DNA of 64,000 nucleotides from Eledone cirrhosa (lineage: Eukaryota), in contig OZ024745.1 in assembly GCA_964016885.1 (NCBI GenBank), positions 84,382,001-84,446,000 on the forward strand, read 5' to 3'. Shown here in pieces: positions 2,024 to 51,972 of the stretch. Positions within the stretch are counted from its first letter, which is position 1; each line of letters opens with the position of its first letter. The notes beneath the pieces were generated by a model. That model searched no databases. It was not told where the DNA came from and saw only the letters and a list, made by a program, of their open reading frames with translations. The translations under genes were made by a program, and so were the position numbers.

Positions 2024-2024
<1 letters not shown>

Positions 2025-3141: not shown

Positions 3142-4096
3142 CTAGACATGAAAAATGCGCAAGCTCAAAAGTGCCACAGAATGTTATAATAAACCTTCAA
3201 AAGTGTGGGACTAGAGTTGTTGCTAAAAAATATTGTAATCATTATATATCGTACATTCTGTGGCATCCTTTATAAAAATAGCTTAAACCAACGAAGCCTT
3301 TATTTTTACGCTATTTCACTTAGTTAATTCTTAGAGTGTAACATATAAAAATAAATACATCTATGTTTAATGTAATAACAGCTATAAATAATTACGTAAT
3401 ATTATTATCATATACTCATAGTAACAAAATAATTGTGTTGAAACTTAATATGATGCTTATATGAACGATCAAATCTATAATGATAATTTCTTAAATATAC
3501 TAATAGTAAAATAATTTAGTTATCTATTGTTACATTTTCATAGAACTATAATATTAACAATCGTATTGCATTATCAAATTTTTATCACTACAAACTTTCA
3601 TATTGGAATTACCTTAAGCCACTTATTATTACTTCGCTTTCGTACTTTTACAGCTGTAGATATTGCGCTGTATCTTATATCTAATATCAATATCTCGTGG
3701 TAATTTGCATGAAGTGTAAAATAGGTTTATTAATAACTTTAATATGAAATGTATTATACAGGGCTGCGGAGTCGGCCAAAAATTGACTGGCTCCAACTCA
3801 GGATCCGATACTCCATTATTTCCTAAATTTCAGCTCCGCAGCTCTGTTATTATATTAATTAATTTATTTTATAGTTGTAAATGATATTTTTATATGTTAC
3901 ACTCTAAGAATTAACTAAGTGAAATAGCGTAAAAATAAAGGCTTCGTTGGTTTAAGCTATTTTTATAAAGGATGCCACAGAATGTACGATATATAATGAT
4001 TACAATATTTTTTAGCAACAACTCTAGTCCCACACTTTTGAAGGTTTATTATAACATTCTGTGGCACATTTGAGCTTGCGCATTTTTCATGTCTAG
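3142..4096. mobile_element. Non-autonomous foldback/TIR element with ~212-bp terminal inverted repeats
   Basis: 3141-3353 is the near-perfect reverse complement of 3885-4097 (one mismatch seen). Termini are CTAG, and TATTAAA flanks both sides (3135-3141, 4097-4103). Confidence 0.8.
3759..3846. mobile_element. 88-bp hAT-like MITE nested in the foldback spacer
   Basis: TIRs cagggctgcggag / ctccgcagctctg (12/13 match); 8-bp flanks gtattata / ttattata (7/8), the TSD length typical of hAT. Confidence 0.7.
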
Positions 4097-4739
4097 TATT
4101 AAATGTTCGGTCAATCCATACGTACATATATATATATGTGTGCATGTATGTATATATATATACATACTACTGTACGTCTATATACATATATGTATGTACG
4201 TATACATACTTATATTTAGGTAACATCCGTAATAAGAGTGGGAAATGAAATTTCGTTTCATTTTTCCGTTTATCGTTTTCGGTACACCCGCCGATTAACC
4301 CACTCGATATGAGAATTGGGCTACTCTGCCGTTAATATGCATAAGGAAAGTATATACTTTCGGACGTTCAATCATCTGGTAGGATGGTATGCTTTGCTGA
4401 CGATAGCTAATAAGCTTGAAACTAGTACAGCGTTCCTTTGTTAGTGTTGAACAAACGAGCCACGGTGGTTGCTAGACACTGCGGCTCAATACGGAATGTT
4501 TGTTTACAAACACAGCGAGTATTATAATAAATGTTCGGTCAATCCATACGTACATATATATATATATATGTGCATGTATGTATATATATATACATACTAC
4601 TATACGTCTGTATACATATATGTATGTACGTATACATACTTATATTTAAGTAACTGCCGTACAAAGAATGGGAAATGAAATTTCGTTTCATTTTTCCGTT
4701 TATCAATTTCGGTGCACTCGGTCGATTAACCCACTTGAT

Positions 4740-4747
4740 ATGCAAAT
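4740..4747 (+). promoter_or_regulatory. Octamer motif ATGCAAAT (present in most monomers; example copy)
   Basis: Exact POU/Oct consensus about 90 bp upstream of the ribozyme core. Function is inferred only. Confidence 0.35.
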
Positions 4748-7375
4748 TGGGCTACTCAGCCGTTAATATGCATAAGGAAAGTATATACTTTCGGACGTTC
4801 AATCATCTGGTAGGATGGTATACTTTGCTGACGATAGCTAATAAGCTTGAAACTAGTACAGCGTTCCTTTGTCAGTGTTGAACAAACGAGCAACGGTGGT
4901 TACTAGACATTGCGGTTTAATACAGGATGTTTGTTTACAAACACAGCGAGCATTATAATAAATGTTCGGTGAATCCATACGTACATATATATATATATGT
5001 GTGCATGTATATATATATATACATACATACTACTGTACGTCTGTATACATATATGTATGTACGTATACATACTTATATTTAAGTAACAGCCGTACTAAGA
5101 GTGGGATATGAATTTTCGTTTCATTTTTCCGTTGTTCGTTTTCGGTGCACTCGGTCGATTAACCCACTTGATAAGCAAATTGGGCTCCTCTGCCGTTAAT
5201 ATGCATGAGGAAAGTATATACTTTCGGACGTTCAATTATCTGGCAGGAAGGTATACGTTGCTGACAAAAGCTAATAAGCTTGAAACTAGTACAGCGTTCC
5301 TTTGTCAGTGTTGAACAAACGAGCAACGGTGGTTTGCTAGACACTACGGTTGAATACGGGATGTTTGTTTACAAACACACCGAGCTTTATAATAAATGTT
5401 CGGTGAATCCATACGTACATATATATATGTGTGCATGTATGTATAAATATATATATATATACATACTACTATACGTCTGTATACATATACATACGTATAC
5501 ATACTTATATTTAAGTAACAGCCGTACTATGAGTGGGAAATGAAATTTCGCTCCATTTTTTCCGTTTATCGTTTTCGGTGTAACCGGCCGATTAACCCAC
5601 TCAATATAAAAATTGGGCTACTCAGCCGTTAATATGCATAAGGAAAGTATATACTTTCAGACGTTCAATCATCTGGCAGGAAAGTATACGTTGCTGACGA
5701 TAGCTAATAAGCTTAAACTAGTACAGCGTTCCTTTGTCAGTGTTGAACAAACGAGCAACGGTGGGTTGTTGGACACTACGGCTTAATACGGAAAGTTGGT
5801 TTACAAACACGCCGAGCATTATAATAAATGTTCGGTGAATCCATAGGTACATATATATATATGTGTGCATGTATGTATATATATATATATATATACTACT
5901 GTACGTCTGTATACATATATGTAGCTACATATGCATACTTCTATTTAAGTAACAGCCGTACTAAGAGTGGGAAATGAAATTTAGTTTAATTTTTTCAGTT
6001 TATCGTTTTCGGTGCACCCGGCCGATTAACCCACTCGATATGCAGATTAGGCTACTCAGCCATTAATATGCATAAGCAAACTATATACTTTCGGACGTTC
6101 AATCATCTGGCAGGAAGGTATAGCTTGTTGACGATAGCTAATAAGCTTGAAACTAGTACAGCGTTCCTTTGTCAGTGTTGAACAAACGAGCAACGGTGGT
6201 TTGCTAGACACTACAGCTTAATACGTGATGTTTGTTTACAAACACACCGAGCTTTATAATAAATGTTCGGTGAATCCATACGTACATATATATATATGTG
6301 TGCATTTATGTATATATACATACATACTACTGTACGTCTGTATACATATATGTATGTACGTATACATAATTTAAGTAACAGCCGTACTAAGAGTGGGAAA
6401 TGAAATTTAGTTTAATTTTTTCAGTTTATCGTTTTCGGTGAACCCGGCCGATTAACCCACTCGATATGCAAATTAGGCTACTCAACCGTTAATATGCATA
6501 AGGAAACTACATACTTTCGGACGTTCAATCATCTGCCAGGAAGGTATACGTTGCTGACGATAGGTATTAAGCTTGAAACTAGTACAGCGTTCCTTTGTCA
6601 GTGTTGAACAAACGAGCAACGGTGGTTGCTAGACACTACGGCTTAATACGGGATGTTTGTTTAAAAACACACAGAGAATTATAATAAATGTTCGGTGAAT
6701 CCATACGTACACATATATATGTGTGCATGTATGTATATATATATACATACTACTGTGCGTCTGTATACATATATGTATGTACGTATACATACTTATATTT
6801 AAGTAACAGCCGTACTAAGAGTGGGAAATGAAATTTCGTTTCTTTTTTCCGTTTATCGTTTTCGGTGCACTCGGTCGATTAACCCACTTGATATGCAAAT
6901 TAGGCTACTCAACCGTTAATATGCATAAGGAACTATATGCTTTCGGATGTTCAATCATCTGGCAGGGTGGTATACGTTGCTGACGATAGCTAATAACCTT
7001 GAAACTAGTACAGCGTTCCTTTGTCAGTGTTGAACAAACGAGCAACGGTGGTTGCTAGACACTAGGGCTTAATACGGGATGTTTCTTTACAAACACACCG
7101 TGCATTATAATAAATGCTTGGTGAATCCATACGTACATATATATATGTGTGCATGTATGTATATATATATACATACTACTGTACGTCTGTATACATATAT
7201 GTTTGTATCTATACATACTTATATTTAAGTAGCAGCCGTACTAAGCGTGGGAAATGAAATTTCGTTTCTTTTTTCCGTTTATCGTTTTCGGTGCACTCGG
7301 TCGATTAACCCACTTGATATGCAAATTAGGCTACTCAACCGTTAATATGCATAGGGAAAGTATATACTTTCGGAC

Positions 7376-7462
7376 GTTCAATCATCTGGCAGGAAGGTAT
7401 AGGTTGCTGACGATAGCTAATAAGCTAGAAACTAGTACAGCCTTCCTTTGTCAGTGTTGAAC
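7376..7462 (+). ncRNA. Full-length type I hammerhead ribozyme, well-paired example
   Basis: Distal stem I GTTCAA/TTGAAC and CTGGCA/TGTCAG; internal loop AGGTAT; proximal stem AGGTTG/CAGCCT; CTGACGA 7407-7413; TAGC-TAATAA-GCTA; GAAA 7428-7431; predicted cleavage after GTA at 7437. Confidence 0.87.
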
Positions 7463-10400
7463 AAACGAGCAACGGTGGTTTGCTAGACACTACAGCTTAA
7501 TACGGGATGTTTGTTTACAAACACACCGAGCTTTATAATAAATGTTCGGTGAATCCATACGTACATATATATATATATATGTGCATGTATGTATATATAC
7601 ATACATACTACTGTACGCCTGTATACATATATGTATGTACGTATACATACTTATATTTAAGTAACAGGCGTACAAAGAGTGGGAAATGAAATTTCGTTAC
7701 ATTTTTCCTTTTATCGTTTTCAGTGCAACCGGCCGATTAAGCCACTCGATATGCAAATTGGGCTACTCTGCCGTTAGTATGCATAAGGAAAGTATATACT
7801 TTCGGACGTTCAATTATCTGGCAGGAAGGTATACGTTGCTGACGATAGCTAATAAGCTAGAAACTAGTACAGCGTTCCTTTGTCAGTGTTGAACAAACGA
7901 GCAACGGTGGTTGCTAGACACTACGGCTTAATACGGGATGTTTGTTTAAAAACACACAGAGAATTATAATAAATGTTCGGTGAATCCATACGTACACATA
8001 TATATGTGTGCATGTATGTATATATATATACATACTACTGTGCGTCTGTATACATATATGTATGTAGGTATACATACTTATATTTAAGTAACAGCCGTAC
8101 TAAGAGTGGGAAATGAAATTTCGTTTCTTTTTTAGTTTATCGTTTTCGGTGCACGCGGTCGATTAACCCACTTGATATGCAAATTGGGTTACTCAGCCGT
8201 TAATATGCATAAGGAAAGTATATACATTCGGACGTTCAATCATCTGGCAGGAAGGTATAGCTTGTTGACGATAGCTAATAAGCTTGAAATTAGTACAGCG
8301 TTCCTTTGTCAGTGTTGAACAAACGAGCAACGGTGGTTTGCTAGACACTACAGCTTAATACGTGATGTTTGTTTACAAACACACCGAGCTTTATAATAAA
8401 TGTTCGGTGAATCCATACGTACATATATATATATGTGTGCATTTATGTATATATACATACATACTACTGTACGTCTGTATACATATATGTATGTACGTAT
8501 ACATAATTATATTTAAGTAACAGCCGTACTAAGAGTGGGAAATGAAATTTAGTTTAATTTTTTCAGTTTATCGTTTTCGGTGAACCCGGCCGATTAACCC
8601 ACTCGATATGCAAATTAGGCTACTCAACCGTTAATATGCATAAGGAAACTATATACTTTCGGACGTTCAATCATCTGCCAGGAAGGTATACGTTGCTGAC
8701 GATAGGTATTAAGCTTGAAACTAGTACAGCGTTCCTTTGTCAGTGTTGAACAAACGAGCAACGGTGGTTGCTAGACACTACGGCTTAATACGGGATGTTT
8801 GTTTAAAAACACACAGAGAATTATAATAAATGTTCGGTGAATCCAAACGTACACATATATATGTGTGCATGTATGTATATATATATACATACTACTGTGC
8901 GTCTGTATACATATATGTATGTACGTATACATACTTATATTTAAGTAACAGCCGTACTAAGAGTGGGAAATGAAATTTCGTTTCTTTTTTCCGTTTATCG
9001 TTTTCGGTGCACTCGGTCGATTAACCCACTTGATATGCAAATTAGGCTACTCAACCGTTAATATGCATAAGGAACTATATGCTTTCGGACGTTCAATCAT
9101 CTGGCAGGATGGTATACGTTGCTGACGATAGCTAATAAGCTTGAAACTAGTACAGCGTTCCTTTGTCAGTGTTGAACAAACGAGCAACGGTGGTTGCTAG
9201 ACACTAGGGCTTAATACGGGATGTTTCTTTACAAACACACCGTGCATTATAATAAATGCTTGGTGAATCCATACGTACATATATATATGTGTGCATGTAT
9301 GTATATATATATACATACTACTGTACGTCTGTATACATATATGTTTGTATCTATACATACTTATATTTAAGTAGCAGCCGTACTAAGCGTGGGAAATGAA
9401 ATTTCGTTTCTTTTTTCCGTTTATCGTTTTCGGTGCACTCGGTCGATTAACCCACTTGATATGCAAATTAGGCTACTCAACCGTTAATATGCATAGGGAA
9501 AGTATATACTTTCGGACGTTCAATCATCTGGCAGGAAGGTATAGGTTGCTGACGATAGCTAATAAGCTAGAAACTAGTACAGCCTTCCTTTGTCAGTGTT
9601 GAACAAACGAGCAACGGTGGTTGCTAGACACTGCAGCTTAATACGGGATGTTTGTTTACAAACACACCGAGCATTATAATAAATGTTCGGTCAATCCATA
9701 CGTACATATATATATATGTGTGCATGTATGTATATATATATACATACTACTGTACGTCTGTATACATATATGTATGTACGTATGCATACTTAAATTTAAG
9801 TAACAGCCGTACAAAGAATAGGAAATGAAATTTCATTTCATTTTTCCGTTCATCGTTCTCGGCACACCCGCCGATTAACCCATTCGATATGCAAACTTGG
9901 CTAACCTGCCGTTAATACTCATAAGGAAAGTATATACTTTCGGACGTTCAATCATCTGGCAGGATGGTATACGTTGCTGACGATAGCTAATAAGCTTGAA
10001 ACTAGTACAGCGTTCCTTTGTCAGTGTTGAACAAACGAGCAACGGTGGTTGCTAGATACTCTCGGCTTAATACGGGATGTCTGTTTACAAACACAGCGAG
10101 CATGATAATAAATGTTCGGTCAATCCATACGTACATATATATATATGTGTGCATGTATGTATATATATATATACATCCTATTGTACGTCTGTATACATAT
10201 ATGTATGTACGTATACATACTTATATTTAAGTAACAGCCGTACAAAGAATGGGAAATGAAATTTCGTTTCATTTATCCGTTTAGCGTTTTCAGTACACCC
10301 GCCGATTAACCCACTCGATATGCAAATTGGGCTACTCTGCCGTTAATATGCATAAGGAAAGTATATACTTTCGGACGTTCAATCATCTGGCAGGATGGTA

Positions 10401-13400
10401 TATGTTGCTGACGATAGCTAATAAGCTAGAAACTAGTACAGCGTTCCTTTGTCAGTGTTGAACAAACGAGCAACGGTGGTTGCTAGACACTGCAGCTTAA
10501 TACGGGATGTTTGTTTACAAACACAGCGAGCATTATAATAAATGTTCGGTCAATCCATACGTACATATATATATATGTGTGCATGTATGTATATATATAT
10601 ACATACTACTGTACGTCTGTATACATATATGTATGTACGTATACATACTTATATTTAAGTAACAGCCGTACAAAGATTGGGAAATGAAATTTCGTTTCAT
10701 TTTTCTGTTCATCGTTTTCGGTGCACTCGGTAGATTAATCAATTCATATGCAAATTGGGTTACTCAGCCGTTAATATGCAGAAGGAAACTATATACTTTC
10801 GGACGTTCAATTATCTGGCAGGAAGGTATAGGTTGCTGACGATAGCTAATAAGCTTGAAACTAGTACAGCGTTCCTTTGTCAGTGTTGAACAAACGAGCA
10901 ACGGTGGTTTGCTAGATTCTACGGCTTAATACGGGATGTTTGTTTACAAACACACCGAGCTTTGTAATAAATGTTCGGTGAATCCATACGTACATTTATA
11001 TTTATGTGCATGTCTGTATATATATATACATACTACTGTACGTCTGTATACATTTATGTATGTACGTATACATACTTATATTTAAGTAACAGCCGTACTA
11101 AGAGTGGGATATGAAATTTCGTTTCATTTTTCCGTTTATAGTTTTCGGTGCACTAGGTCGATTAACCCACTTGATATGCAAATTGGGCTAGTCAGCCGTT
11201 AATATGCATAAGGACAGTATATACTTTCGGACGTTCAATCATCTGGCAGGATGGTATACGTTGCTGACGATAGCTAATAAACTTGAAATTAGTACCGCGT
11301 TCCTTTGTCAGTGTTGAACAAACGAGCAACGGTGGTTGTTAGACACTGCGGCTTAATACGGGATGTTTGTTTACAAACACAGCGAGCATTATAATAAATG
11401 TTCGGTCAATCCATACGTACATATATATATATGTGTGCATGTATGTATATATATATACATACTAATGTGCGTCTGTATACATATATGTATGTACGTATAA
11501 ATAATTATATTTAAGTAACAGCCGTACTAAGAGTGGGAAATGAAATTTCGTTTCATTTTTCTGTTTATCGTTTTCAGTGCACCCGGCCGATTAACCCATT
11601 CGATATGCAAATTGGACTACTCAGCCGTTAATATGCATAAGGAAAGTATATACTTTCGGACGTTCAATCATCTGGCAGGAAAGTATAGCTTGTTGACGAT
11701 AGCTAATAAGCTTGAAACTAGTACAGCGTTCCTTTGTCAGTGTTGAACAAACGAGCAACGGTGGTTTGCTAGACACTACAGCTTAATACGTGATATTTGT
11801 TTACAAACACACCGAGCTTTATAATAAATGTTCGGTGAATCCATACGTACATATATATATATGTGTGCATTTATGTATATATACATACATACTACTGTAC
11901 GTCTGTATACATATATGTATGTACGTATACATAATTATATTTAAGTAACAGCCATACTAAGAGTGGGAAATGAAATTTAGTTTAATTTTTTCAGTTTATC
12001 GTTTTCGGTGAACCCGGCCGATTAACCCACTCGATATGCAAATTAGGCTACTCAACCGTTAATATGCATAAGGAAACTATATACTTTCGGACGTTCAATC
12101 ATCTGCCAGGAAGGTATACGTTGCTGACAATAGGTATTAAGCTTGAAACTCGTACAGCGTTCCTTTGTCAGTTTTGAACAAACGAGCAACGGTGGTTGCT
12201 AGACACTACGGCTTAATACGGGATGTTTGTTTAAAAACACACAGAGAATTATAATAAATGTTCGGTGAATCCATACGTACACATATATATGTGTGCATGT
12301 ATGTATATATATATACATACTACTGTGCGTCTGTATACATATATGTATGTACGTATACATACTTATATTTAAGTAACAGCCGTACTAAGAGTGGGAAATG
12401 AAATTTCGTTTCTTTTTTCCGTTTATCGTTTTCGGTGCACTCGGTCGATTAACCCACTTGATATGCAAATTAGGCTACTCAACCGTTAATATGCATAAGG
12501 AACTATATGCTTTCGGACGTTCAATCATCTGGCAGGATGGTATACGTTGCTGACGATAGCTAATAAGCTTGAAACTAGTACAGCGTTCCTTTGTCAGTGT
12601 TGAACAAACGAGCAACGGTGGGTTGTTGGACACTACGGCTTAATACGGAAAGTTGGTTTACAAACACGCCGAGCATTATAATAAATGTTCGGTGAATCCA
12701 TAGGTACATATATATATATGTGTGCATGTATGTATATATATATATATATACTACTGTACGTCTGTATACATATATGTAGCTACATATGCATACTTCTATT
12801 TAAGTAACAGCCGTACTAAGAGTGGGAAATGAAATTTAGTTTAATTTTTTCAGTTTATCGTTTTCGGTGCACCCGGCCGATTAACCCACTCGATATGCAA
12901 ATTAGGCTACTCACCCATTAATATGCATATGCAAACTATATACTTTCGGACGTTCAATCATCTGGCAGGAAGGTATAGCTTGTTGACGATAGCTAATAAG
13001 CTTGAAACTAGTACAGCGTTCCTTTGTCAGTGTTGAACAAACGAGCAACGGTGGTTTGCTAGACACTACAGCTTAATACGTGATGTTTGTTTACAAACAC
13101 ACCGAGCTTTATAATAAATGTTCGGTGAATCCATACGTACATATATATATATGTGTGCATTTATGTATATATACATACATACTACTGTACGTCTGTATAC
13201 ATATATGTATGTACGTATACATAATTATATTTAAGTAACAGCCGTACTAAGAGTGGGAAATGAAATTTAGTTTAATTTTTTCAGTTTATCGTTTTCGGTG
13301 AACCCGGCCGATTAACCCACTCGATATGCAAATTAGGCTACTCAACCGTTAATATGCATAAGGAAACTACATACTTTCGGACGTTCAATCATCTGCCAGG

Positions 13401-15359
13401 AAGGTATACGTTGCTGACGATAGGTATTAAGCTTGAAACTAGTACAGCGTTCCTTTGTCAGTGTTGAACAAACGAGCAACGGTGGTTGCTAGACACTACG
13501 GCTTAATACGGGATGTTTGTTTAAAAACACACAGAGAATTATAATAAATGTTCGGTGAATCCATACGTACACATATATATGTGTGCATGTATGTATATAT
13601 ATATACATACTACTGTGCGTCTGTATACATATATGTATGTACGTATACATACTTATATTTAAGTAACAGCCGTACTAAGAGTGGGAAATGAAATTTCGTT
13701 TCTTTTTTCCGTTTATCGTTTTCGGTGCACTCGGTCGATTAACCCACTTGATATGCAAATTAGGCTACTCAACCGTTAATATGCATAAGGAACTATATGC
13801 TTTCGGATGTTCAATCATCTGGCAGGGTGGTATACGTTGCTGACGATAGCTAATAACCTTGAAACTAGTACAGCGTTCCTTTGTCAGTGTTGAACAAACG
13901 AGCAACGGTGGTTGCTAGACACTAGGGCTTAATACGGGATGTTTCTTTACAAACACACCGTGCATTATAATAAATGCTTGGTGAATCCATACGTACATAT
14001 ATATATGTGTGCATGTATGTATATATATATACATACTACTGTACGTCTGTATACATATATGTTTGTATCTATACATACTTATATTTAAGTAGCAGCCGTA
14101 CTAAGCGTGGGAAATGAAATTTCGTTTCTTTTTTCCGTTTATCGTTTTCGGTGCACTCGGTCGATTAACCCACTTGATATGCAAATTAGGCTACTCAACC
14201 GTTAATATGCATAGGGAAAGTATATACTTTCGGACGTTCAATCATCTGGCAGGAAGGTATAGGTTGCTGACAATAGCTAATAAGCTAGAAACTAGTACAG
14301 CCTTCCTTTGTCAGTGTTGAACAAACGAGCAACGGTGGTTTGCTAGACACTACAGCTTAATACGGGATGTTTGTTTACAAACACACCGAGCTTTATAATA
14401 AATGTTCGGTGAATCCATACGTACATATATATATATATGTGCATGTATGTATATATACATACATACTACTGTACGTCTGTATACATATATGTATGTACGT
14501 ATACATACTTATATTTAAGTAACAGGCGTACAAAGAGTGGGAAATGAAATTTCGTTACATTTTTCCTTTTATCGTTTTCAGTGCAACCGGCCGATTAAGC
14601 CACTCGATATGCAAATTGGGCTACTCTGCCGTTAGTATGCATAAGGAAAGTATATACTTTCGGACGTTCAATTATCTGGCAGGAAGGTATACGTTGCTGA
14701 CGATAGCTAATAAGCTTGAAACTAGTACAGCGTTCCTTTGTCAGTGTTGAACATACGAGCAACGGTGGTTGCTAGACACTACGGCGTAATACGGGATGTC
14801 TGTTTACAAACACACCGAGAATTATAATAAATGTTCGGTCAATCCATACGTACATATATATATATGTGTGCATGTATGTATATATATATACATACTACTG
14901 TACGTCTATATACATATATGTATGTACGTATACATACTTATATTTAGGTAACATCCGTAATAAGTGTGGGAAATGAAATTTCGTTTCATTTTTCCGTTTA
15001 TCGTTTTCGGTACACCCGCCGATTAACCCACTCGATATGCAAATTGGGCTACTCTGCCGTTAATATGCATAAGGAAAGTATATACTTTCGGACGTTCAAT
15101 CATCTGGCAGGATGGTATATGTTGCTGACGATAGCTAATAAGCTAGAAACTAGTACAGCGTTCCTTTGTCAGTGTTGAACAAACGAGCAACGGTGGTTGC
15201 TAGACACTACGGCTTAATACGGGATGTTTGTTTAAAAACACACAGAGAATTATAATAAATGTTCGGTGAATCCATACGTACACATATATATGTGTGCATG
15301 TATGTATATATATATACATACTACTGTGCGTCTGTATACATATATGTATGTACGTATAC

Positions 15360-18300
15360 ATACTTATATTTAAGTAACAGCCGTACTAAGAGTGGGAAAT
15401 GAAATTTCGTTTCTTTTTTAGTTTATCGTTTTCGGTGCACGCGGTCGATTAACCCACTTGATATGCAAATTGGGTTACTCAGCCGTTAATATGCATAAGG
15501 AAAGTATATACATTCGGACGTTCAATCATCTGGCAGGAAGGTATAGCTTGTTGACGATAGCTAATATGCTTGAAATTAGTACAGCGTTCCTTTGTCAGTG
15601 TTGAACAAACGAGCAACGGTGGTTTGCTAGACACTACAGCTTAATACGTGATGTTTGTTTACAAACACACCGAGCTTTATAATAAATGTTCGGTGAATCC
15701 ATACGTACATATATATATATGTGTGCATTTATGTATATATACATACATACTACTGTACGTCTGTATACATATATGTATGTACGTATATATAATTATATTT
15801 AAGTAACAGCCGTACTAAGAGTGGGAAATGAAATTTAGTTTAATTTTTTCAGTTTATCGTTTTCGGTGAACCCGGCCGATTAACCCACTCGATATGCAAA
15901 TTAGGCTACTCAACCGTTAATATGCATAAGGAAACTATATACTTTCGGACGTTCAATCATCTGCCAGGAAGGTATACGTTGCTGACGATAGGTATTAAGC
16001 TTGAAACTAGTACAGCGTTCCTTTGTCAGTGTTGAACAAACGAGCAACGGTGGTTGCTAGACACTACGGCTTAATACGGGATGTTTGTTTAAAAACACAC
16101 AGAGAATTATAATAAATGTTCGGTGAATCCAAACGTACACATATATATGTGTGCATGTATGTATATATATATACATACTACTGTGCGTCTGTATACATAT
16201 ATGTATGTACGTATACATACTTATATTTAAGTAACAGCCGTACTAAGAGTGGGAAATGAAATTTCGTTTCTTTTTTCCGTTTATCGTTTTCGGTGCACTC
16301 GGTCGATTAACCCACTTGATATGCAAATTAGGCTACTCAACCGTTAATATGCATAAGGAACTATATGCTTTCGGACGTTCAATCATCTGGCAGGATGGTA
16401 TACGTTGCTGACGATAGCTAATAAGCTTGAAACTAGTACAGCGTTCCTTTGTCAGTGTTGAACAAACGAGCAACGGTGGTTGCTAGACACTAGGGCTTAA
16501 TACGGGATGTTTCTTTACAAACACACCGTGCATTATAATAAATGCTTGGTGAATCCATACGTACATATATATATGTGTGCATGTATGTATATATATATAC
16601 ATACTACTGTACGTCTGTATACATATATGTTTGCATCTATACATACTTATATTTAAGTAGCAGCCGTACTAAGCGTGGGAAATGAAATTTCGTTTCTTTT
16701 TTCCGTTTATCGTTTTCGGTGCACTCGGTCGATTAACCCACTTGATATGCAAATTAGGCTACTCAACCGTTAATATGCATAGGGAAAGTATATACTTTCG
16801 GACGTTCAATCATCTGGCAGGAAGGTATAGGTTGCTGACGATAGCTAATAAGCTAGAAACTAGTACAGCCTTCCTTTGTCAGTGTTGAACAAACGAGCAA
16901 CGGTGGTTTGCTAGACACTACGGCGTAATACGGGATGTCTGTTTACAAACACATTGAGAATTATAATAAATGTTCGGTCAATCCATACGTACATATATAT
17001 ATATATGTGCATGTATGTATATATATATACATACTACTGTACGTCTATATACATATATGTATGTACGTATACATACTTATAGTTAGGTAACATCCGTAAT
17101 AAGAGTGGGAAATGAAATTTCGTTTCATTTTTCCGTTTATCGTTTTCGGTACACCCGCCGATTAACCCACTCGATATGCAAATTGGGCTACTCTGCCGTT
17201 AATATGCATAAGGAAAGTATATACTTTCGGACGTTCAATCATCTGGCAGGATGGTATATGTTGCTGACGATAGCTAATAAGCTAGAAACTAGTACAGCGT
17301 TCCTTTGTCAGTGTTGAACAAACGAGCAACGGTGGTTGCTAGACACTGCAGCTTAATACGGGATGTTTGTTTACAAACACACCGAGCATTATAATAAATG
17401 TTCGGTCAATCCATACGTACATATATATATATGTGTGCATGTATGTATATATATATACATACTACTGTACGTCTGTATACATATATGTATGTACGTATAC
17501 ATACTTAAATTTAAGTAACAGCCGTACAAAGAATAGGAAATGAAATTTCATTTCATTTTTCCGTTCATCGTTCTCGGCACACCCGCCGATTAACCCATTC
17601 GATATGCAAACTTGGCTAACCTGCCGTTAATACTCATAAGGAAAGTATATACTTTCGGACGTTCAATCATCTGGCAGGATGGTATACGTTGCTGACGATA
17701 GCTAATAAGCTTGAAACTAGTACAGCGTTCCTTTGTCAGTGTTGAACAAACGAGCAACGGTGGTTGCTAGATACTCTCGGCTTAATACGGGATGTCTGTT
17801 TACAAACACAGCGAGCATGATAATAAATGTTCGGTCAATCCATACGTACATATATATATATGTGTGCATGTATGTATATATATATATACATCCTATTGTA
17901 CGTCTGTATACATATATGTATGTACGTATACATACTTATATTTAAGTAACAGCCGTACAAAGAATGGGAAATGAAATTTCGTTTCATTTATCCGTTTAGC
18001 GTTTTCAGTACACCCGCCGATTAACCCACTCGATATGCAAATTGGGCTACTCTGCCGTTAATATGCATAAGGAAAGTATATACTTTCGGACGTTCAATCA
18101 TCTGGCAGGATGGTATATGTTGCTGACGATAGCTAATAAGCTAGAAACTAGTACAGCGTTCCTTTGTCAGTGTTGAACAAACGAGCAACGGTGGTTGCTA
18201 GACACTGCAGCTTAATACGGGATGTTTGTTTACAAACACAGCGAGCATTATAATAAATGTTCGGTCAATCCATACGTACATATATATATATGTGTGCATG

Positions 18301-30300: not shown

Positions 30301-30400
30301 TATGTATATATACATACATACTACTGTACGTCTGTATACATATATGTATGTACGTATACATACTTATATTTAAGTAACAGCCGTACTAAGAGTGGGAAAT
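15360..30400 (+). repeat. 12-monomer higher-order repeat, period 5143 bp, ~2.8 copies
   Basis: Identical ORF-track variants at 16682/21825/26968, 17733/22876/28019 and 19255/24398. Confidence 0.92.
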
Positions 30401-39400: not shown

Positions 39401-42400
39401 ATTTCGTTTCATTTTTTCCGTTTATCGTTTTCGGTGCACCCGGCCGATTAACCCACTCGATATTCAAATTAGTCTACTCCGCCGTTAATATGCATAAGGA
39501 AAGTATATACTTTCGGACGTTCAATCGTCTGGCAGGATATTATACGTTGCTGACGATAGCTAATAAGCTTGAAACTAGTACAACGTTCCTTTGTCAGTGT
39601 TGAACAAACGAGCAACGGTGGTTTGCTAGACACTACGGCTTAATACAGGATGTTTGTTTACAAACAAAGCGAGCATTATAATAAATGTTCGGTGAATCCA
39701 TACGTACATATATATATATGTGTGCATGTATGTATATATATATACATACTACTGTACGTCTGTATACATATATGTATGTACGTATACATACTTATATTTA
39801 AGTAACAGCCGTACTAAGAGTGGGATATGAAATTTCGTTTCATTTTCCGTTTATCGTTTTCGGTGCACTCGGTCGATTAACCCACTTGATATGCAAATTA
39901 GGCTACACAACCGTTAATATGCATAAGGAAACTATATACTTTCGGACGTTCAATCATCTGGCAGGTAGGTATACGTTGCTGACGATAGCTAATAAGCTTG
40001 AAACTATTACCGCGTTCCTTTGTCAGTGTTGAACAAACGAGCAACGGTGCTTTGCTAGACACTACGGCTGAATACAGGATGTTTGTTTACAAACACACCG
40101 AGCATTATAATAAATGTTCGGTGAATCAATACGTACATATATATATGTGTGCATGTATGTATATATATATATACTTAGTACTATACGTCTGTATACATAT
40201 ATGTATGTACGTATACATACTTATATTTAAGTAACAGCCGTACTAAGAGTGGGAAATGAAACTTTGTTTCATATTTCCGTTTATCGTTTTCGGTGCACTC
40301 GGTCGATTAATCCACTTGATATGCAAATTGGGCTACTCAGCCGTTAATATGCATAAGGACAGTATATACTTTGGGACGTTCAATCATCTGGCAGGAAGGT
40401 ATGCGTTGCTGACGATAGCTAATAAGCTTGAAATTAGTACAGCGTTCCTTTGTCAGTGTTGAACAAACGAGTAACGGTGGTTGCTAACACTACGGCTTAA
40501 TCCGGGATGCTTGTTTACAAAAACACCGAGAATTATAATAACTGCTCGGTGAATCCATACGTACATATATATACGTGTGCATGTATGTATATATATATAC
40601 ATACTACTGTACGTCTGTATAAATTTATGTATGTACGTATACATACTTATATTTAAGTAACAGCCGTACTAAGAGTGGGATATGAAATTTCGTTTCATTT
40701 TTCCGTTGATCGTTTTCGGTACACTCGGTCGATTAACCCACTTGATAAGCAAATTGGGCTCCTCTGCTGTTAATATGCATAAGGAAAGTATATACTTTCG
40801 GACGTTCAATTATCTGGCAGGAAGGTATACGTTGATGACGATAGCTAATAAGCTTGAAACTAGTACAGCGTTCCTTTGTCAGTGTTGAACAAACGAGCAA
40901 CGGTGGTTTGTTGGACACTACGGCTTAATACGGAAAGTTGGTTTACAAACATGCCGAGCATTATAATAAATGCTCGGTGAATCCATAGGTACATATATAT
41001 ATGTGTGCATGTATGTATATATATATACATACTACTGTACGTCTGTATACATATATGTATGTACGTATACATACTTATATTTAAGTAACAGCCGTACTAA
41101 GAGTGGGAAATGAAATTTCGTTTCATTTTTCCGTTTATCGTTTTCGGTGCACTCGGTCGATTAACCCACTTGATATGCAAATTGGCCTACTCAGCCGTTA
41201 ATATGCATAAGGACAGTATATACTTTCGGACGTTCGATCATCTGGCAGGATGGTATACGTTGCTGACGATAGCTCATATGCTTGAAACTAATACAGCGTT
41301 CCTTTGTCTTGTTGAACAAACGAACAACGGTGGTTACTAGACACTACGGCTTAATACTTGATGTTTGTTTACAAACACACCGATACTTATAATAAATGTT
41401 CGGTGAATCCATACGTACATATATATATGTGTGCATGTATGTATATATATATACATACTACTCCGCGTCTGTATACATATATGTATGTACGTATACATAC
41501 TTATATTTAAGTAACAGCCGTACTAAGAGTGGGAAATGAAATTTCGTTTCATTTTTCCGTTCATCGTTGTCGGTGCACTCGGTCGATTAACCCACTTGAT
41601 ATGCAAATTAGGTTACTCAACCGTTAATATGCATAAGGACACTATATACTTTCGGACGTTCAATCATCTGGCAGGTAGGTATACATTGCTGACGATAGCT
41701 AATAAGCTTGAAACTAGTACCGCGTCCCTTTGTCAGTGTTGAACAAACGAGCAACGGTGGTTTGCTAGACACTACGGCTTAATACCGGATGTTTGTTTAC
41801 AAACACACCGAGCATTATAATAAATGTTCGGTGAATCAATACGTACATATATATATGTGTGCATGTACGTATATATATATATACTTAGTACTATACGTCT
41901 GTATACATATATGTATGTACGTATACATACTTATATTTAAGTAACAGCCGTACTATGAGTGGGATATGAAATTTCGTTTCATTTTTCCGTTGATCGCTTT
42001 CGGTGCACTCGGTCGATTAACCCACTTGTTAAGCAAATTGGGCTACTCTGCCGTTAATATGCATAAGGAAAGTATATACTTTCGGACGTTCAATTATCTG
42101 GCAGGAAGGTATACTTTGCTGACGATAGCTAATAAGCTTGAAACTAGTACAGCGTTCCTTTGTCAGTGTTGAACAAACGAGCAACGGTGGTTTGCTAGAC
42201 ACTACGGCTTAATACCGGATGTTTGTTTACAAACACACCGAGCATTATAATAAATGTTCGGTGAATCCATACGTACATATATATATGTGTGCAAGTATGT
42301 ATATATATATACATACTACTGTGCGTCTGTATACATATATGTATGTACGTATACATACTTATATTTAAGTAACAGCCGTACTAAGTGTGGGAATTGAAAT

Positions 42401-45400
42401 TTCGTTTCATTTTTCCGTTTATCGTTTTCGGTGCACCCGGCCGATTAACCCATTCGATATGCAAATTGGGCTACTCTGCCGTTAATATGCATAAGGAAAG
42501 TATATACTTTCGGACGTTCAATCATCTGGCAGGATGGTATACGTTGCTGACGATAGCCAATAAGCTTGAAACTAGTACAGCGTTCCTTTGTCAGTGTTGA
42601 ACAAACGAGCAACCATGGTTTGTTGGACACTACGGCTTAATACTGAAAGTTGGTTTACAAACACGCCGAGCATAATAATAAATGCTCGGTGAATCCATAG
42701 GTACATATATATATGTGTGCATGTATGTATATATATATACATACTACTGTACGTCTGTATACATATATTTATGTACGTATACATACTTATATTTAAGTAA
42801 CAGCCGTACTAAGAGTGGGAAATGAAATTTCGTTTCATTTTTTCCATTTATCGTTTTCGGTGCACCCGGCCGATTAACCCACTCGATATGCAAATTAGTC
42901 TACTCCGCCGTTAATATGCATAAGGAAAGTATATACTTTCGGACGTTCAATCATCTGGCAGGATGTTATACGTTGCTGACGATAGCTAATAAGCTTGAAA
43001 CTAGTACAACGTTCCTTTGTCAGTGTTGAACAAACGAGCAACGGTGGTTTGCTAGACACTACGGCTTAATACGGGATGTTTGTTTACAAACACTGCGAGC
43101 ATTATAATAAATGTTCGGTGAATCCATACGTACATATATATGTGTGCATGTATGTATATATATATACATACTACTGTACGTCTGTATACATATATGTATG
43201 TACGTATACATACTTATATTTAAGTAACAGCCGTACTAAGAGTGGGAAATGAAATTTTGTTTCATATTTCCGTTTATCGTTTTCGGTGCACTCGGTCGAT
43301 TAACCCACTTGATATGCAAATTTGGCTACTCAGCCGTTAATATGCATATGGACAGTATATACTATGGGACGTTCAATCATCTGGCAGGAAGGTATGCGTT
43401 GCTGACGATAGCTAATAAGCTTGAAATTAGTATCGCGTTCCTTTGTCAGTGTTGAACAAACGAGTAACGGTGGTTGCTAGACACTACGGCTTAATCCGGG
43501 ATGCTTGTTTACAAAAACACCGAGAATTATAATAACTGCTCGGTGAATCCATACGTACATATATATATATGTGTGCATGTATGTATATATATATACATAC
43601 TACTGTACGTCTGTATACATATATGTATGTACGTATACATACTTACATTTAAGTAACAGCCGTACTAAGAGTGGGATATGAAATTTCGTTTCATTTTTCC
43701 GTTGATCGTTTTCGGTGCACTCGGTCGATTAACCCTCTTGATAAGCAAATTGGGCTCCTCAGCCGTTAATATGCATAAGGAAAGTATATACTTTCGGACG
43801 TTCAATTATCTGGCAGGAAGGTATACGTTGCTGACGATAGCTAATAAGCTTGAAACTAGTACAGCGTTCCTTTGTCAGTGTTGAACAAATGAGCAACGGT
43901 GGTTTGCTAGACACTACGGCTGAATACGGGATGTTTGTTTACAAACACACCGAGCATTATAATAAATGTTCGGTGAATCAATACGTACATATATATATGT
44001 GTGCATGTACGTATATATATATATACTTAGTACTATACGTCTGTATACATATATGTATGTACGTATACATACTTATATTTAAGTAACAGCCGTACTATGA
44101 GTGGGATATGAAATTTCGTTTCATTTTTCCGTTGATCGCTTTCGGTGCACTCGGTCGATTAACCCACTTGTTAAGCAAATTGGGCTACTCTGCCGTTAAT
44201 ATGCATAAGGAAAGTATATACTTTCGGACGTTCAATTATCTGGCAGGAAGGTATACTTTGCTGACGATAGCTAATAAGCTTGAAACTAGTACAGCGTTCC
44301 TTTGTCAGTGTTGAACAAACGAGCAACGGTGGTTTGCTAGACACTACGGCTTAATACCGGATGTTTGTTTACAAACACACCGAGCATTACAATAAATGTT
44401 CGGTGAATCCATACGTACATATATATATGTGTGCATGTATGTATATATATATACATACTACTGTGCGTCTGTATACATATATGTATGTACGTATACATAC
44501 TTATATTTAAGTAACAGCCGTACTAAGTGTGGGAATTGAAATTTCGTTTCATTTTTCCGTTTATCGTTTTCGGTGCACCCGGCCGATTAACCCACTCGAT
44601 ATGAAAATCGGGCTATTCAGCCGTTAATATGCATAAGGAAACTATATACTTTCGGACGTTCAATCATCTGGCAGGAAGGTATGCGTTGCTGACGATAGCT
44701 AATAAGCTTGAAATTAGTACAGCGTTCCTTTGTCAGTGTTGAACAAACGAGCAACGGTGGTTGCTAGACTCTACGGCTTAATCCGGGATGCTTGTTTACA
44801 AACACACCGAGAATTATAATAACTGCTCGGTGAATCCATACGTACATATATATACGTGTGCATGTATGTATATATACATACTACTGTACGTCTGTATACA
44901 TATATGTATGTACGTATACATACTTATATTTAAGTAACAGCCGTACTAAGCGTGGGAAAAGAAATTTCGTTTCATTTTTCCGTTTATCGTTTTCAGTGCA
45001 CCCGGTCGATTAACCCATTCGATATGCAAATTGGGCTACTCTGCCGTTAATATGCATAAGGAAAGTATATACTTTCGGACGTTCAATCATCTGGCAGGAT
45101 GGTATACGTTGCTGACGATAGCCAATAAGCTTGAAACTAGTACAGCGTTCCTTTGTCAGTGTTGAACAAACGAGCAACCATGGTTTGTTGGACACTACGG
45201 CTTAATACTGAAAGTTGGTTTACAAACACGCCGAGCATAATAATAAATGCTCGGTGAATCCATAGGTACATATATATATGTGTGCATGTATGTATATATA
45301 TATACATACTACTGTACGTCTGTATACATATATTTATGTACGTATACATACTTATATTTAAGTAACAGCCGTACTAAGAGTGGGAAATGAGATTTCGTTT

Positions 45401-48400
45401 CATTTTTTCCATTTATCGTTTTCGGTGCACCCGGCCGATTAACCCACTCGATATGCAAATTAGTCTACTCCGCCGTTAATATGCATAAGGAAAGTATATA
45501 CTTTCGGACGTTCAATCATCTGGCAGGATGTTATACGTTGCTGACGATAGCTAATAAGCTTGAAACTAGTACAACGTTCCTTTGTCAGTGTTGAACAAAC
45601 GAGCAACGGTGGTTTGCTAGACACTACGGCTTAATACGGGATGTTTGTTTACAAACACTGCGAGCATTATAATAAATGTTCGGTGAATCCATACGTACAT
45701 ATATATGTGTGCATGTATGTATATATATATACATACTACTGTACGTCTGTATACATATATGTATGTACGTATACATACTTATATTTAAGTAACAGCCGTA
45801 CTAAGAGTGGGAAATGAAATTTTGTTTCATATTTCCGTTTATCGTTTTCGGTGCACTCGGTCGATTAACCCACTTGATATGCAAATTTGGCTACTCAGCC
45901 GTTAATATGCATATGGACAGTATATACTATGGGACGTTCAATCATCTGGCAGGAAGGTATGCGTTGCTGACGATAGCTAATAAGCTTGAAATTAGTACCG
46001 CGTTCCTTTGTCAGTGTTGAACAAACGAGTAACGGTGGTTGCTAGACACTACGGCTTAATCCGGGATGCTTGTTTACAAAAACACCGAGAATTATAATAA
46101 CTGCTCGGTGAATCCATACGTACATATATATATATGTGTGCATGTATGTATATATATATACATACTACTGTACGTCTGTATACATATATGTATGTACGTA
46201 TACATACTTACATTTAAGTAACAGCCGTACTAAGAGTGGGATATGAAATTTCGTTTCATTTTTCCGTTGATCGTTTTCGGTGCACTCGGTCGATTAACCC
46301 TCTTGATAAGCAAATTGGGCTCCTCTGCCGTTAATATGCATAAGGAAAGTATATACTTTCGGACGTTCAATTATCTGGCAGGAAGGTATACGTTGCTGAC
46401 GATAGCTAATAAGCTTGAAACTAGTACAGCGTTCCTTTGTCAGTGTTGAACAAATGAGCAACGGTGGTTTGCTAGACACTACGGCTGAATACGGGATGTT
46501 TGTTTACAAACACACCGAGCATTATAATAAATGTTCGGTGAATCCATACGTACATATATATATGGGTGCATGTATGTATATATATATATATATATATACA
46601 TACTACTATACGTCTGTATACATATATGTATGTACGTATACATACTTATATTTAAGTAACAGCCGTACTAAGTGTGGGAAATGAAATTTCGCTCCATCTT
46701 TCCGTCTATCGTTTTCGGTGCACCCGGCCGATTAACCCACTCGATATGCAAATTGGGCTACTCAGCCGTTATTATGCAAAAGGATAGTATATACTTTCGG
46801 ACCTTCAATTATCTGGCAGGAAGGTATACGTTGCTGACGGTAGCTAATAAGCTTGAAACTAGTACAGCGTTCCTTTGTCAGTGTTGAACAAACGAGCAAC
46901 GGCGGTTACTTGACACTACGGCTTAATACGGGATGTTTGTTTACAAACACAGCGAGCATTATAATAAATGTTCGGTGAATCCATACGTACATATATATAT
47001 ATATGTGTGCATGTATGTATATATATATACATACTACTGTACGTCTGTATACATATATGTATGTACGTATACATACTTATATTTAAGTAACAGCCGTACT
47101 AAGAGTGGGAAATGAAATTTTGTTTCATATTTCCGTTTATCGTTTTCGGTGCACTCGGTCGATTAACCCACTTGATATGCAAATTTGGCTACTCAGCCGT
47201 TAATATGCATAAGGACAGTATATACTTTGGGACGTTCAATCATCTGGCAGGAAGGTATGCGTTGCTGACGATTGCTAATAAGCTTGAAATTAGTACAGCG
47301 TTCCTTTGTCAGTGTTGAACAAACGAGTAACGGTGGTTGCTAGACACTACGGCTTAATCCGGGATGCTTGTTTACAAAAACACCGATACTTATAATAAAT
47401 GTTCGGTGAATCCATACGTACATATATATATGTGTGCATGTATGTATATATATATACATACTACTGTGCGTCTGAATACATATATGTATGTACGTATACA
47501 TATTTATATTTAAGTAACAGTCGTACTAAGTGTGGGAAATGAAATTTCGCTCAATTTTTTCCGTTTATCGTTTTCGGTGCATCCGGCCGATTAACCCACT
47601 CGATATGCATATTGGTCTACTCAGCCGTTAATATGCATAAGGAAAGTATATAATTTCGGACGTTCAATCATCTGGCAGGAAGGTATACGCTGCTGACGGT
47701 AGCTAATAAGCTGGAAACTAGTACAGCGTTCCTTTGTCAGTGTTGAACAAACGAGCAACGGTGGTTTGCTAGACACTACGGCTTAATACGGGATGTTTGT
47801 TTACAAACACACCGAGCATTAAAATAAATGTTCGGTGAATCCATACGTACATATATATATATGTGCATGTATGTATATATATATACATACTACTGTACGT
47901 CTGTATACATATATGTATGTACGTATACATACTTATATTTAAGTAACAGCCGTACTAAGAGTGGGAAATGAAATTTCGCTCCATTATTTCTGTTTATCGT
48001 TTTCGGTGCATCCGGCCGATTAACCCACTCGAATTGCATATTGGTCTACTCAGCCGTTAATATGCATAAGGAAAGTATATACTTTCGGACGTTCAATCAT
48101 CTGGCAGGAAGGTATACGTTGCTGACGATAGCTAATAAGCTTGAAACTAGTACAGCGTTCCTTTGTCAGTGTTGAACAAACGAGCAACGGTGGTTACTAG
48201 ACTATACGGCTTAATACTTGATGTTTGTTTACAAACACACCGATACTTATAATAAATGTTTGGTGAATCCATACGTACATATATATATGTGTGCATGTAT
48301 GTATATATATATACATACTACTGTGCGTCTGTATACATATATGTATGTACGTATACATACTTATATTTAAGTAACAGCCGTACTAAGAGTGGGAAATGAA

Positions 48401-51400
48401 ATTTCGTTTCATTTTTTCCGTTTATCGTTTTCGGTGCACCCGGCCGATTAACCCACTCGATATGAAAATTGGGCTATTCAGCCGTTAATATGCATAAGGA
48501 AACTATTTACTTTCGGACGTTCAATCATCTGGCAGGATGGTATGCGTTGCTGACGATAGCTAATAAGCTTAAAATTAGCACAGCGTTCCTTTGTAAGTGT
48601 TGAACAAACGGGTAACGGTGGTTGCTAACACTACGTCTTAATCCGGGATGCTTGTTTACAAAAACACCGAGAATTATAATAACTGCTCGGTGAATCCATA
48701 CGTACATATATATACGTGTGCATGTATGTATATATATACATACTACTGTACGTCTGTATACATATATGTATGTACGTATACATACTTATAATTAAGTAAC
48801 AGCCGTACTAAGAGTGGGAAATGAAATTTTGTTTCATATTTCCGTTTATCGTTTTCGGTGCACTCGGTCGATTAACCCACTTGATATGCAAATTTGGCTA
48901 CTCAGCCGTTAATATGCATAAGGACAGTATATACTTTGGGACGTTCAATCATCTGGCAGGAAGGTATGCGTTGCTGACGATTGCTAATAAGCTTGAAATT
49001 AGTACAGCGTTCCTTTGTCAGTGTTGAACAAACGAGTAACGGTGGTTGCTAGACACTACGGCTTAATCCGGGATGCTTGTTTACAAAAACACCGATACTT
49101 ATAATAAATGTTCGGTGAATCCATACGTACATATATATATGTGTGCATGTATGTATATATATATACATACTACTGTGCGTCTGAATACATATATGTATGT
49201 ACGTATACATATTTATATTTAAGTAACAGTCGTACTAAGTGTGGGAAATGAAATTTCGCTCAATTTTTTCCGTTTATCGTTTTCGGTGCATCCGGCCGAT
49301 TAACCCACTCGATATGCATATTGGTCTACTCAGCCGTTAATATGCATAAGGAAAGTATATAATTTCGGACGTTCAATCATCTGGCAGGAAGGTATACGCT
49401 GCTGACGGTAGCTAATAAGCTGGAAACTAGTACAGCGTTCCTTTGTCAGTGTTGAACAAACGAGCAACGGTGGTTTGCTAGACACTACGGCTTAATACGG
49501 GATGTTTGTTTACAAACACACCGAGCATTAAAATAAATGTTCGGTGAATCCATACGTACATATATATATATGTGCATGTATGTATATATATATACATACT
49601 ACTGTACGTCTGTATACATATATGTATGTACGTATACATACTTATATTTAAGTAACAGCCGTACTAAGAGTGGGAAATGAAATTTCGCTCCATTATTTCT
49701 GTTTATCGTTTTCGGTGCATCCGGCCGATTAACCCACTCGAATTGCATATTGGTCTACTCAGCCGTTAATATGCATAAGGAAAGTATATACTTTCGGACG
49801 TTCAATCATCTGGCAGGAAGGTATACGTTGCTGACGATAGCTAATAAGCTTGAAACTAGTACAGCGTTCCTTTGTCAGTGTTGAACAAACGAGCAACGGT
49901 GGTTACTAGACTATACGGCTTAATACTTGATGTTTGTTTACAAACACACCGATACTTATAATAAATGTTTGGTGAATCCATACGTACATATATATATGTG
50001 TGCATGTATGTATATATATATACATACTACTGTGCGTCTGTATACATATATGTATGTACGTATACATACTTATATTTAAGTAACAGCCGTACTAAGAGTG
50101 GGAAATGAAATTTCGTTTCATTTTTTCCGTTTATCGTTTTCGGTGCACCCGGCCGATTAACCCACTCGATATGAAAATTGGGCTATTCAGCCGTTAATAT
50201 GCATAAGGAAACTATTTACTTTCGGACGTTCAATCATCTGGCAGGATGGTATGCGTTGCTGACGATAGCTAATAAGCTTAAAATTAGCACAGCGTTCCTT
50301 TGTAAGTGTTGAACAAACGGGTAACGGTGGTTGCTAACACTACGTCTTAATCCGGGATGCTTGTTTACAAAAACACCGAGAATTATAATAACTGCTCGGT
50401 GAATCCATACGTACATATATATACGTGTGCATGTATGTATATATATACATACTACTGTACGTCTGTATACATATATGTATGTACGTATACATACTTATAA
50501 TTAAGTAACAGCCGTACTATGAGTGGGAAATGAAATTTCGCTCCATTTTTACCGTTTATCGTTTTCGGTGAAACCGGCCGATTAACCCACTCTATATGAA
50601 AATTGGGCTACTCAGCCGTTAATATGCATAAGGAAAGTATATACTTTCAGACGTTCAATCATCTGGCAGGAAGGTATACGTTGCTGACGATAGCTAATAA
50701 GCTTGAAACTTGTACAGCGTTCCTTTGTCAGTGTTGAACAAATGAGCAACGGTGGTTACTAGACACTACGGCTTAATACTTGATGTTTATTTACAAACAC
50801 ACCGATACTTATAATAAATGTTCGGTGAATCCATACGTACATATATATATGTGTGCATGTATGTATATATATATACATACTACTGTGCCTCCGTATACAT
50901 TTAAGTATGTACGTATACATACTTATAATTAAGTAACAGCCGTACTAAGAGTGGGAAAGGAAATTTCGTTTCATTTTTTCCGTTTATTGTTTTCGGTGCA
51001 CCCGGCCGATTAACCCACTCGACATGCAATTTGGGCTACACAGCCGTTAATATGCATAAGGAAACTTTATACTTTCGGACCTTCAATAATCTGGCAGGAA
51101 GGTATACGTTGCTGACGATAGCTAAAAAGCTTGAAACTAGTACAGCGTTCCTTTGTCAGTGTTGAACAAACGAGCAACGGTGGTTTGCTAGACACTACGG
51201 CTTAATACGGGATGTTTGTTTACAAACACACAGAGCATTATAATAAATGTTCGGTAAATCCATACGTACATATATATATATGTGCATGTATGTATATATA
51301 TATATACATACTTCTGTACGTCTGTATACATATATGTACGTACGTATACATACTTATATTTAAGTAACAGCCGTACTAAGAGTGGGAAATGAAATTTCGT

Positions 51401-51510
51401 TTCATTTTACCGTTTATCGTTTTCGGTGCACTCGGTCGATTACCCCACTTGATATGCAAATTGGGCTACTCAGCCGTTAATATGCATAAGGAAACTATAT
51501 ACTTTCGGAC

Positions 51511-51597
51511 GTTCAATCATCTGGCAGGATGGTATACGTTGCTGACGATAGCTAATAAGCTTGAAACTAGTACAGCGTTCTTTTGTCAGTGTTGAAC
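51511..51597 (+). ncRNA. Last hammerhead copy of the array
   Basis: ACGTTG-CTGACGA(51542-51548)-TAGCTAATAAGCTT-GAAA-CTAGTA|CAGCGT; predicted cleavage after 51572. Confidence 0.8.
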
Positions 51598-51780
51598 AAA
51601 CGAGCAACGGTGGTTGCTAGACACAACGGCTTAATACGGGATGTTTGTTTACAAACACACCGAGCATTATAATAAATGTTTGGTGAATCCATACGTACAT
51701 ATATATAGTTTGCATGTATGTATATATATATACATGCTACTGTACGTCTGTATACATATATGTATGTACGTATACATACC

Positions 51781-51972
<192 letters not shown>

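Follow-up and report, generated by a model that had tools for sequence, protein, structure and literature searches.

The window (the whole stretch of DNA analysed, 64,000 nucleotides, G000:C5:84382001-84446000 of a 3.0-Gb genome) carries a long tandem array that is probably a non-LTR retrozyme, seeded by a Penelope-like element (PLE) type of insertion and afterwards enlarged by unequal crossover. At the sequence level, a noncoding unit of ~420-430 bp bearing a type I hammerhead supports placing the repeat in the retrozyme type. The array is no size record and this kind of element is already known; most of the interest lies in the anatomy of its insertions. The movement of animal retrozymes has so far been a hypothesis that invokes PLE machinery and circular templates. 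Here, copies from three families bear the marks (two start sites, inverted arms) that recent work has linked to reverse transcription by PLEs, they share targets with long-ORF reverse transcriptase (RT)/GIY-YIG elements of the same genome, and a 60-kb satellite is tied to one retro-insertion. Direct tests thereby become possible of which helper acts, of whether circles or multimers serve as template, and of what the ribozyme contributes.

The array and its immediate surroundings comprise the following features:

4097..51780 (+ strand): main array block, 111 hammerhead-bearing units of ~429 bp, with higher-order repeats at lags of 12, 16-18 and 3-6 units
1..574 (+ strand): end of the upstream array block, which holds 21 motifs and begins ~8.5 kb before the window
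51781..51973 (no strand): (TA)n-rich run directly after the array's 3' end, the inferred target site
575..4096 (no strand): composite insert of 3,522 bp that splits one unit at GAATTA^TATTAAATG
3142-4096 (no strand): young 955-bp element within the insert, with 212-bp terminal inverted repeats that are 99.5% identical and a 7-bp flanking duplication, TATTAAA

Tandem Repeats Finder places the repeat at 4100-51785, with a period of 428, 111.3 copies and 91% matches; the majority unit is 429 bp and its G+C content 35-38%. A first-pass annotation of this DNA had described ~110 tandem copies of a ~429-bp monomer, which these figures and the 111 motifs bear out. The limits that it gave hold for the main block, but the array is longer and takes in window positions 1-574, the 21 upstream motifs and, preceding the upstream block at ~9.2-8.5 kb before the window, an inverted arm of ~1.55 units with 2 motifs. 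The whole locus spans ~61 kb and contains 132 forward motifs (21 upstream plus 111 in the main block). The inverted arm is joined head to head with the forward arm through a short templated piece, and its outer end, at consensus position 127, lies at neither of the two fixed 3' sites of the family (described below). On the right, the array stops at consensus ~210-216, which is the family's first fixed 3' end, and runs into (TA)n. Only this right end is canonical. Three ATG ORFs of at least 100 aa touch 4097-51780 (one of 112 aa lies inside it and two extend into the TA run), and we found in the array neither an ORF with RT plus GIY-YIG endonuclease nor a tRNA gene.

The rest of the insert, 575-3134, begins with a 55-bp imperfect palindrome and ends in a short A run; its minus strand carries a degraded, hammerhead-like remnant at 1330-1371 (E 0.037). 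A Helitron interpretation of the whole 3.5-kb insert, suggested by TC...CTAG between A and T, was rejected because the CTAG belongs to the separate inverted-repeat element.

The hammerhead motif, which reads in the monomers as first described, is best followed in these examples:

9115..9159 (+ strand): family-typical hammerhead core, with a 6-bp helix I, CUGACGA and U-U at the base of helix II
7832..7876 (+ strand): U-A variant core, predicted cut after 7869; rare genome-wide and amplified in the array
7808..7894 (+ strand): extended helix I with a GGUA internal loop, the inferred partner of loop II
7751..7758 (+ strand): octamer ATGCAAAT, 119 nt before the cut and present in 82/110 units

The typical core has UAAUAA as loop II, GAAA, and, inside the palindrome ACUAGU, a helix III of just 2 bp, a property that had gone unmentioned; cleavage is predicted to follow GUA at 9152. 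Cuts had also been expected after 7437 and 10007, and both predictions stand, except that the unit following 7437 begins CAGCC and not CAGCG. The layout is the canonical metazoan one for type I (a 6-bp helix I, a 4-bp helix II, a 1-2-bp helix III with a small palindromic loop and the core CUGANGA/GAAA/UH), in which two copies cleave more readily as a dimer owing to the short, palindromic helix III (PMC4209133). Helix II consists of 3 bp plus a U-U in 85 of the 111 units (U-A in 22, U-G in 2 and a one-base deletion shift in 2), in line with the earlier observation of a U-U majority and a U-A subset. A full core is present in 82/111 units and broken in 29/111. When helix I (5-6/6 pairs), helix II (3/3 upper pairs) and the palindrome are also counted, 57/111 motifs are fully intact, and both motifs are intact in 34/110 neighbouring pairs.

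The U-U pair is the family norm and the form that spread, not a defect: U-A occurs in just 54 of the 12,369 exact core copies genome-wide, and 21 of those 54 lie in this array. The idea that the U-A copies are the functional ones finds no support, given this genome-wide spread of U-U and the axolotl motif HHR_Amex2, which also has U-U at the base of helix II and cleaves 22% in an hour as a monomer, and much better as a dimer (PMC7229834).

The extended helix I (GTTCAA/TTGAAC and CTGGCA/TGTCAG) proposed from the first inspection forms in the predicted fold of two 88-nt copies (z -3.4 and -2.4), and this pairing would join both ends of the cut monomer. The 44-nt cores alone fold no better than shuffles (z -1.3 and -0.2). 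In the lowest-energy fold of one core, C3-U4-G5 pairs with the helix III loop, giving an inactive form, and the predicted energy of a dimer approximately equals that of two inactive folds (-20.8 vs -21.0 and -17.6 vs -17.2 kcal/mol). Also speaking against the proposed self-cleavage, only 1/9 predicted dimers of Xenopus retrozymes cleaved in one study (10.64898/2026.07.22.740005). Judged by its sequence, the array would be predicted to give rise to self-processed RNAs of ~429 nt. The octamer ATGCAAAT also occurs in sister families B and C and is absent from family D and from one variant of family A, to which the array unit belongs. Newt satellite 2 has an snRNA-type promoter; the octamer may be taken as a promoter lead only.

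An Rfam search, the check originally proposed, gave no hammerhead match for the whole window, three units or one motif, even at E<=10 (the Rfam miRNA matches in the window come from its AT-rich simple-repeat part and were discarded). The identity of the motif is supported by covariation, by the match of a sister family to Rfam HH9 and by a sister-trained covariance model. A loose pattern that fixed only CUGANGA and GAAACUAGU matched the genome 40,598 times vs 11 times for its reversed control, which excludes a chance origin of the motif, and exact matches number 8,055 for a 32-mer and 12,369 for the core, with 0 for the controls. In total the genome holds more than 50,000 such hammerhead motifs, and the array locus is not unique.

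These motifs belong to several families. In family B, the helix I U-G of A is changed to G-U. Family C has a 466-bp unit that is 66% identical to the array unit over 246 nt, is cut after GUU and has GAUG/CAUC or GUUG/CAAC in helix II; at L191/L192 (G000:C1:5738327-5752443), it forms a 32-motif array with an inverted arm and a canonical helix II. It matches Rfam HH9 with an E value of 2.5e-8 (below gathering), and its GGUA loop aligns over the HH9 internal loop. On sequence grounds, C appears the best candidate for a fast ribozyme. Family D (L202-L230 on G000:C1) is a very young retrozyme with a 310-bp unit and ~14,000 motifs (two overlapping patterns each matched ~13,900 times, and of the 100 matches listed most were D). 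It bears no likeness to the array unit outside the motif, replaces the palindrome ACUAGU with ACGCGU, has U-U or A-U at the base of helix II and matches HH9 at E 0.025, below gathering. Its multi-unit arrays are arranged head to head, their units are identical, and the tail measures ~35 nt. Four further loci (L143, L147, L148 and L155) carry single hammerhead motifs of other families, with a longer helix II.

For covariation we used 21 haplotypes, found with search patterns that left the helices unconstrained: 19 seen at least 2 times (a window copy standing for the commonest), the window U-A form and L161. Helices I and II covary: nine of 12 pairs vary on both sides and 91.7% of cells pair, a result that 0/500 shuffles reach (9/12) and for which slid controls give 1-2 pairs; relatedness of the rows can alone beat shuffles, which the slid control and family D lessen and do not remove. 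The only poorly paired column is the base of helix II, unpaired in 16/21. A covariance model built from 8 sequences of C, D and L216, without A or B, found 113/113 window copies, all on the + strand, plus one weak hit, in a comparison that is not fully independent since C is homologous to the array unit. Together these results support the array motif as a putative, structurally conserved type I hammerhead. We set aside the lower mutation rate of the core within the array (2.9% vs 4.7%) as evidence because the units are not independent.

How the family spread was read from 64 loci, namely those at the first exact 32-mer matches along the genome, after six overlapping loci and one duplicated segment pair had been dropped. 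Of 96 3' ends, 81 fall at two sites 58 nt apart (37 at 210-220 and 44 at 263-274), and 70 of those 81 run into TATA. Among 27 head-to-head pairs, 19 combine the two end classes, none repeats a class and 8 have one unclassified end, so that all 19 classifiable pairs use one of each class. The stretch between the two sites is exemplified in the main block:

8084..8140 (+ strand): ~58-nt 'tail' between the two fixed 3' ends, at consensus ~216 and ~274 after the cut

This tail folds as a weak hairpin (z -1.5). In PLEs, as described for anole Poseidon (PMC11167929), RT starts at two internal sites and the tail is what separates them; by analogy the tail here would lie between two reverse-transcription start sites. 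The 5' ends are evenly spread, as in random truncation, with no pile-up at the cut (positions 1-12 contain 5, against an expected 3.3; p 0.24). Of 94 segments, 71 span the cut, and 13 span two or more. The genome therefore holds no fossil of cleavage. Target-site duplications, which in non-LTR retrozymes exceed 4 bp where present, are masked, as the ends of the copies run into (TA)n. The insertions of families C and D that we inspected show the same two-end pattern, and contigs from 3 sequence runs of one sample also carry the family, with loose ends into (TA)n at 8083. The general marks of PLE insertion are an inverted 5' copy, a one-sided tail and a microsatellite bias (10.1101/2021.04.23.441226), and Poseidon has AT-rich targets and uses uncleaved RNA as its main substrate (PMC11167929). 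The dispersed copies fit a non-autonomous PLE in their two 3' ends, one-sided tail, inverted 5'-truncated arm and microsatellite target.

Potential sources of the machinery are present, as the genome holds elements with RT and GIY-YIG that end in (TA)n and have hammerhead-like motifs. Among 10,594 candidate GIY-YIG frames, 150 were scored. One element (L141) is organised as pLTR-ORF-pLTR, with RT and GIY-YIG matches in an open frame of 938 aa, and ends in (TA)n; its motif, read by eye, is a hammerhead-like one of the U3-A8 type with the palindrome ACCGGT. Including this element, six loci (L141, L142, L150, L147, L153 and L157) combine long-ORF RT/GIY-YIG with U3-A8-type hammerhead-like motifs around ACCGGT. 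Mollusca are the commonest source in clusters of L141-like proteins, among very few recorded members. In 50 (30 + 20) GIY-YIG loci drawn from the 10,594 candidates, we found no pLTR homology to the A, C or D unit; apparent matches there turned out to be neighbouring retrozyme insertions, and one PLE family showed a short resemblance at the 3' end that fell short of significance (p 0.08-0.95).

The insertions also carry information about the template that was copied. Insertion D1 has 12 units over both arms with 0 differences, and young sister insertions are nearly as uniform over both arms (0.4% over 7 units for an A-type, 0-0.5% for B and C), with differences of 0.3-4.2% between young insertions. 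Such near-identical units are as expected for rolling-circle copying of a monomer circle, or for transcripts of a uniform array. Several family-A insertions instead contain mixed neighbouring units, with arms that match in offset register, as expected for multimer templates. Adjacent units of family A differ by 3.9% within insertions vs 5.5% between them (39 and 9,098 comparisons), which does not discriminate for or against a monomer circle. At L136 (G000:C1:49582500-49590500) and L092/L096, units of 420 and 422 bp alternate strictly, which suggests a dimer template or later duplication of a dimer. Both the circle and the multimer route may work.

The mixed insertions and the missing 5' pile-up would also be accommodated if the hammerhead were vestigial, its cleavage killed by the U-U and the competing inactive fold of the core, and if the unit spread as uncleaved read-through RNA in the manner of a Penelope-dependent SINE-like passenger. 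In some young insertions, neighbouring units differ by 4-7% while the arms agree in offset register (0/109, 1/164 and 2/264), which points to mixed multimer templates, and the anole PLE still inserts in vitro when its ribozyme is mutated (PMC11167929). We nevertheless consider this unlikely, given that helix I underwent the compensatory U-G to G-U change between A and B, that N7 and loop II vary freely while the core is fixed, that U-U recurs in the unrelated family D and that the axolotl motif cleaves despite its U-U.

Under the retro-insertion reading that we prefer, the insertion accounts for the start of the array, and its length is mostly due to DNA-level duplication afterwards, as judged from the divergence of the units combined with higher-order blocks that are often exact. 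Distinct sequences number 85 among 110 units, with a mean of 30.5 substitutions per pair. The blocks recur at lags of 12, 16-18 and 3-6 units; units ~30-59 recur at lag 12 with 0-1 differences, the array contains 37 identical pairs, and broken hammerhead cores have been duplicated along with intact ones. Near-identical blocks of this sort might also arise if the assembly had over-expanded them, so that the family would be live elsewhere and the true array shorter, with much of the block length an artefact; the diversity of the units and the long arrays of sister families (32 units on C1) make this very improbable. An ordinary satellite with a chance hammerhead-like word, spread by DNA routes (rolling-circle DNA or Helitron-like), would share the higher-order repeats, which do record DNA-level amplification inside the array, but is largely refuted by the helix covariation, by copies that end at two fixed 3' sites, are truncated at random on the 5' side and have head-to-head arms, and by the same anatomy in the RT-encoding PLEs of this genome.

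The course of events that we propose would begin with read-through transcription of the tandem units. The RNA would cleave itself slowly after GUA, mostly when neighbouring motifs pair via ACUAGU (to judge from the architecture and from tested relatives), and part of it would remain multimeric or be ligated into circles. A PLE protein with RT and GIY-YIG activities would then nick (TA)n runs, as the end anatomy suggests, and presumably start reverse transcription ~216 and ~274 nt after the cut, leaving 5'-truncated and often head-to-head copies. One such insertion would have seeded the array, with the inverted arm on its left and the first fixed end plus (TA)n on its right. The higher-order repeats suggest that the seeded locus then grew to ~132 units by DNA-level duplication. 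It would later have taken in the 3.5-kb insert, and its 29/111 broken cores point to partial decay.

A wider and more tentative proposal, to which we give somewhat less than even weight, is that a weakened hammerhead (U-U and palindromic helix III), found in several unrelated families, spares circular or multimeric RNA, that a (TA)n-targeting PLE RT copies the circles repeatedly from two starts, and that the resulting head-to-head concatemers seed giant satellites. If true, the proposal would supply direct genomic evidence for the life cycle suggested for retrozymes, and a way in which ribozyme RNA can become satellite DNA.

The closest known systems are the metazoan non-LTR retrozymes of coral, mussel and axolotl, which resemble the array in having noncoding tandem units of 150-450 bp with a G+C content below 50%, one type I hammerhead per unit, dispersed as well as tandem copies and coexisting PLEs (PMC7229834). 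The array likewise has no LTR organisation; the comparison is one of features, not of sequence. The two-site, tail and inversion anatomy is clear here and is not given in the available portion of PMC7229834. Neither the size of the array nor the length of its monomer is exceptional, as had been supposed: 62-mer arrays of 150-450-bp units (PMC7229834), arrays of 180 and 300 units and units of 51-972 bp (bioRxiv 10.64898/2026.07.22.740005) have been published. The vertebrate and insect retrozymes of the latter study share the long arrays, the mix of monomers, dimers and multimers and the proposed dependence on PLEs. There the link to PLEs comes from co-occurrence and pLTR homology (24/57 Xenopus families matched known elements, mostly PLEs), whereas for the array family no pLTR homology was found and it is the insertion ends that match the PLE mechanism.

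PLEs themselves, as represented by anole Poseidon, share with our copies the two internal 3' ends with a tail, the inverted 5'-truncated arm and the AT-rich or microsatellite targets (PMC11167929; 10.1101/2021.04.23.441226), as well as a hammerhead upstream of the start sites (PMC11167929). They differ in that the array lacks RT or GIY-YIG coding, has a tail of ~58 nt vs 30-40 and a canonical vs a minimal hammerhead (PMC11167929). Newt satellite 2 and the Schistosoma W-element satellites are also type I hammerhead arrays of satellite scale with a very short helix III; they belong to other lineages, differ in sequence and have had transcription and cleavage demonstrated (PMC7229834; PMC8490949). 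Our literature search, which covered main texts, found no cephalopod retrozyme and no PLE-type end anatomy for retrozymes; the main text of 10.64898/2026.07.22.740005 names no mollusc among the classes sampled. In the giant squid genome, 235 Rfam hammerhead-1 matches have been recorded (PMC6962438). Beyond the array and its (TA)n run, window positions 52570-64000 hold, on the minus strand, two broken LINE copies in tandem, with endonuclease, RT and zf-RVT matches.
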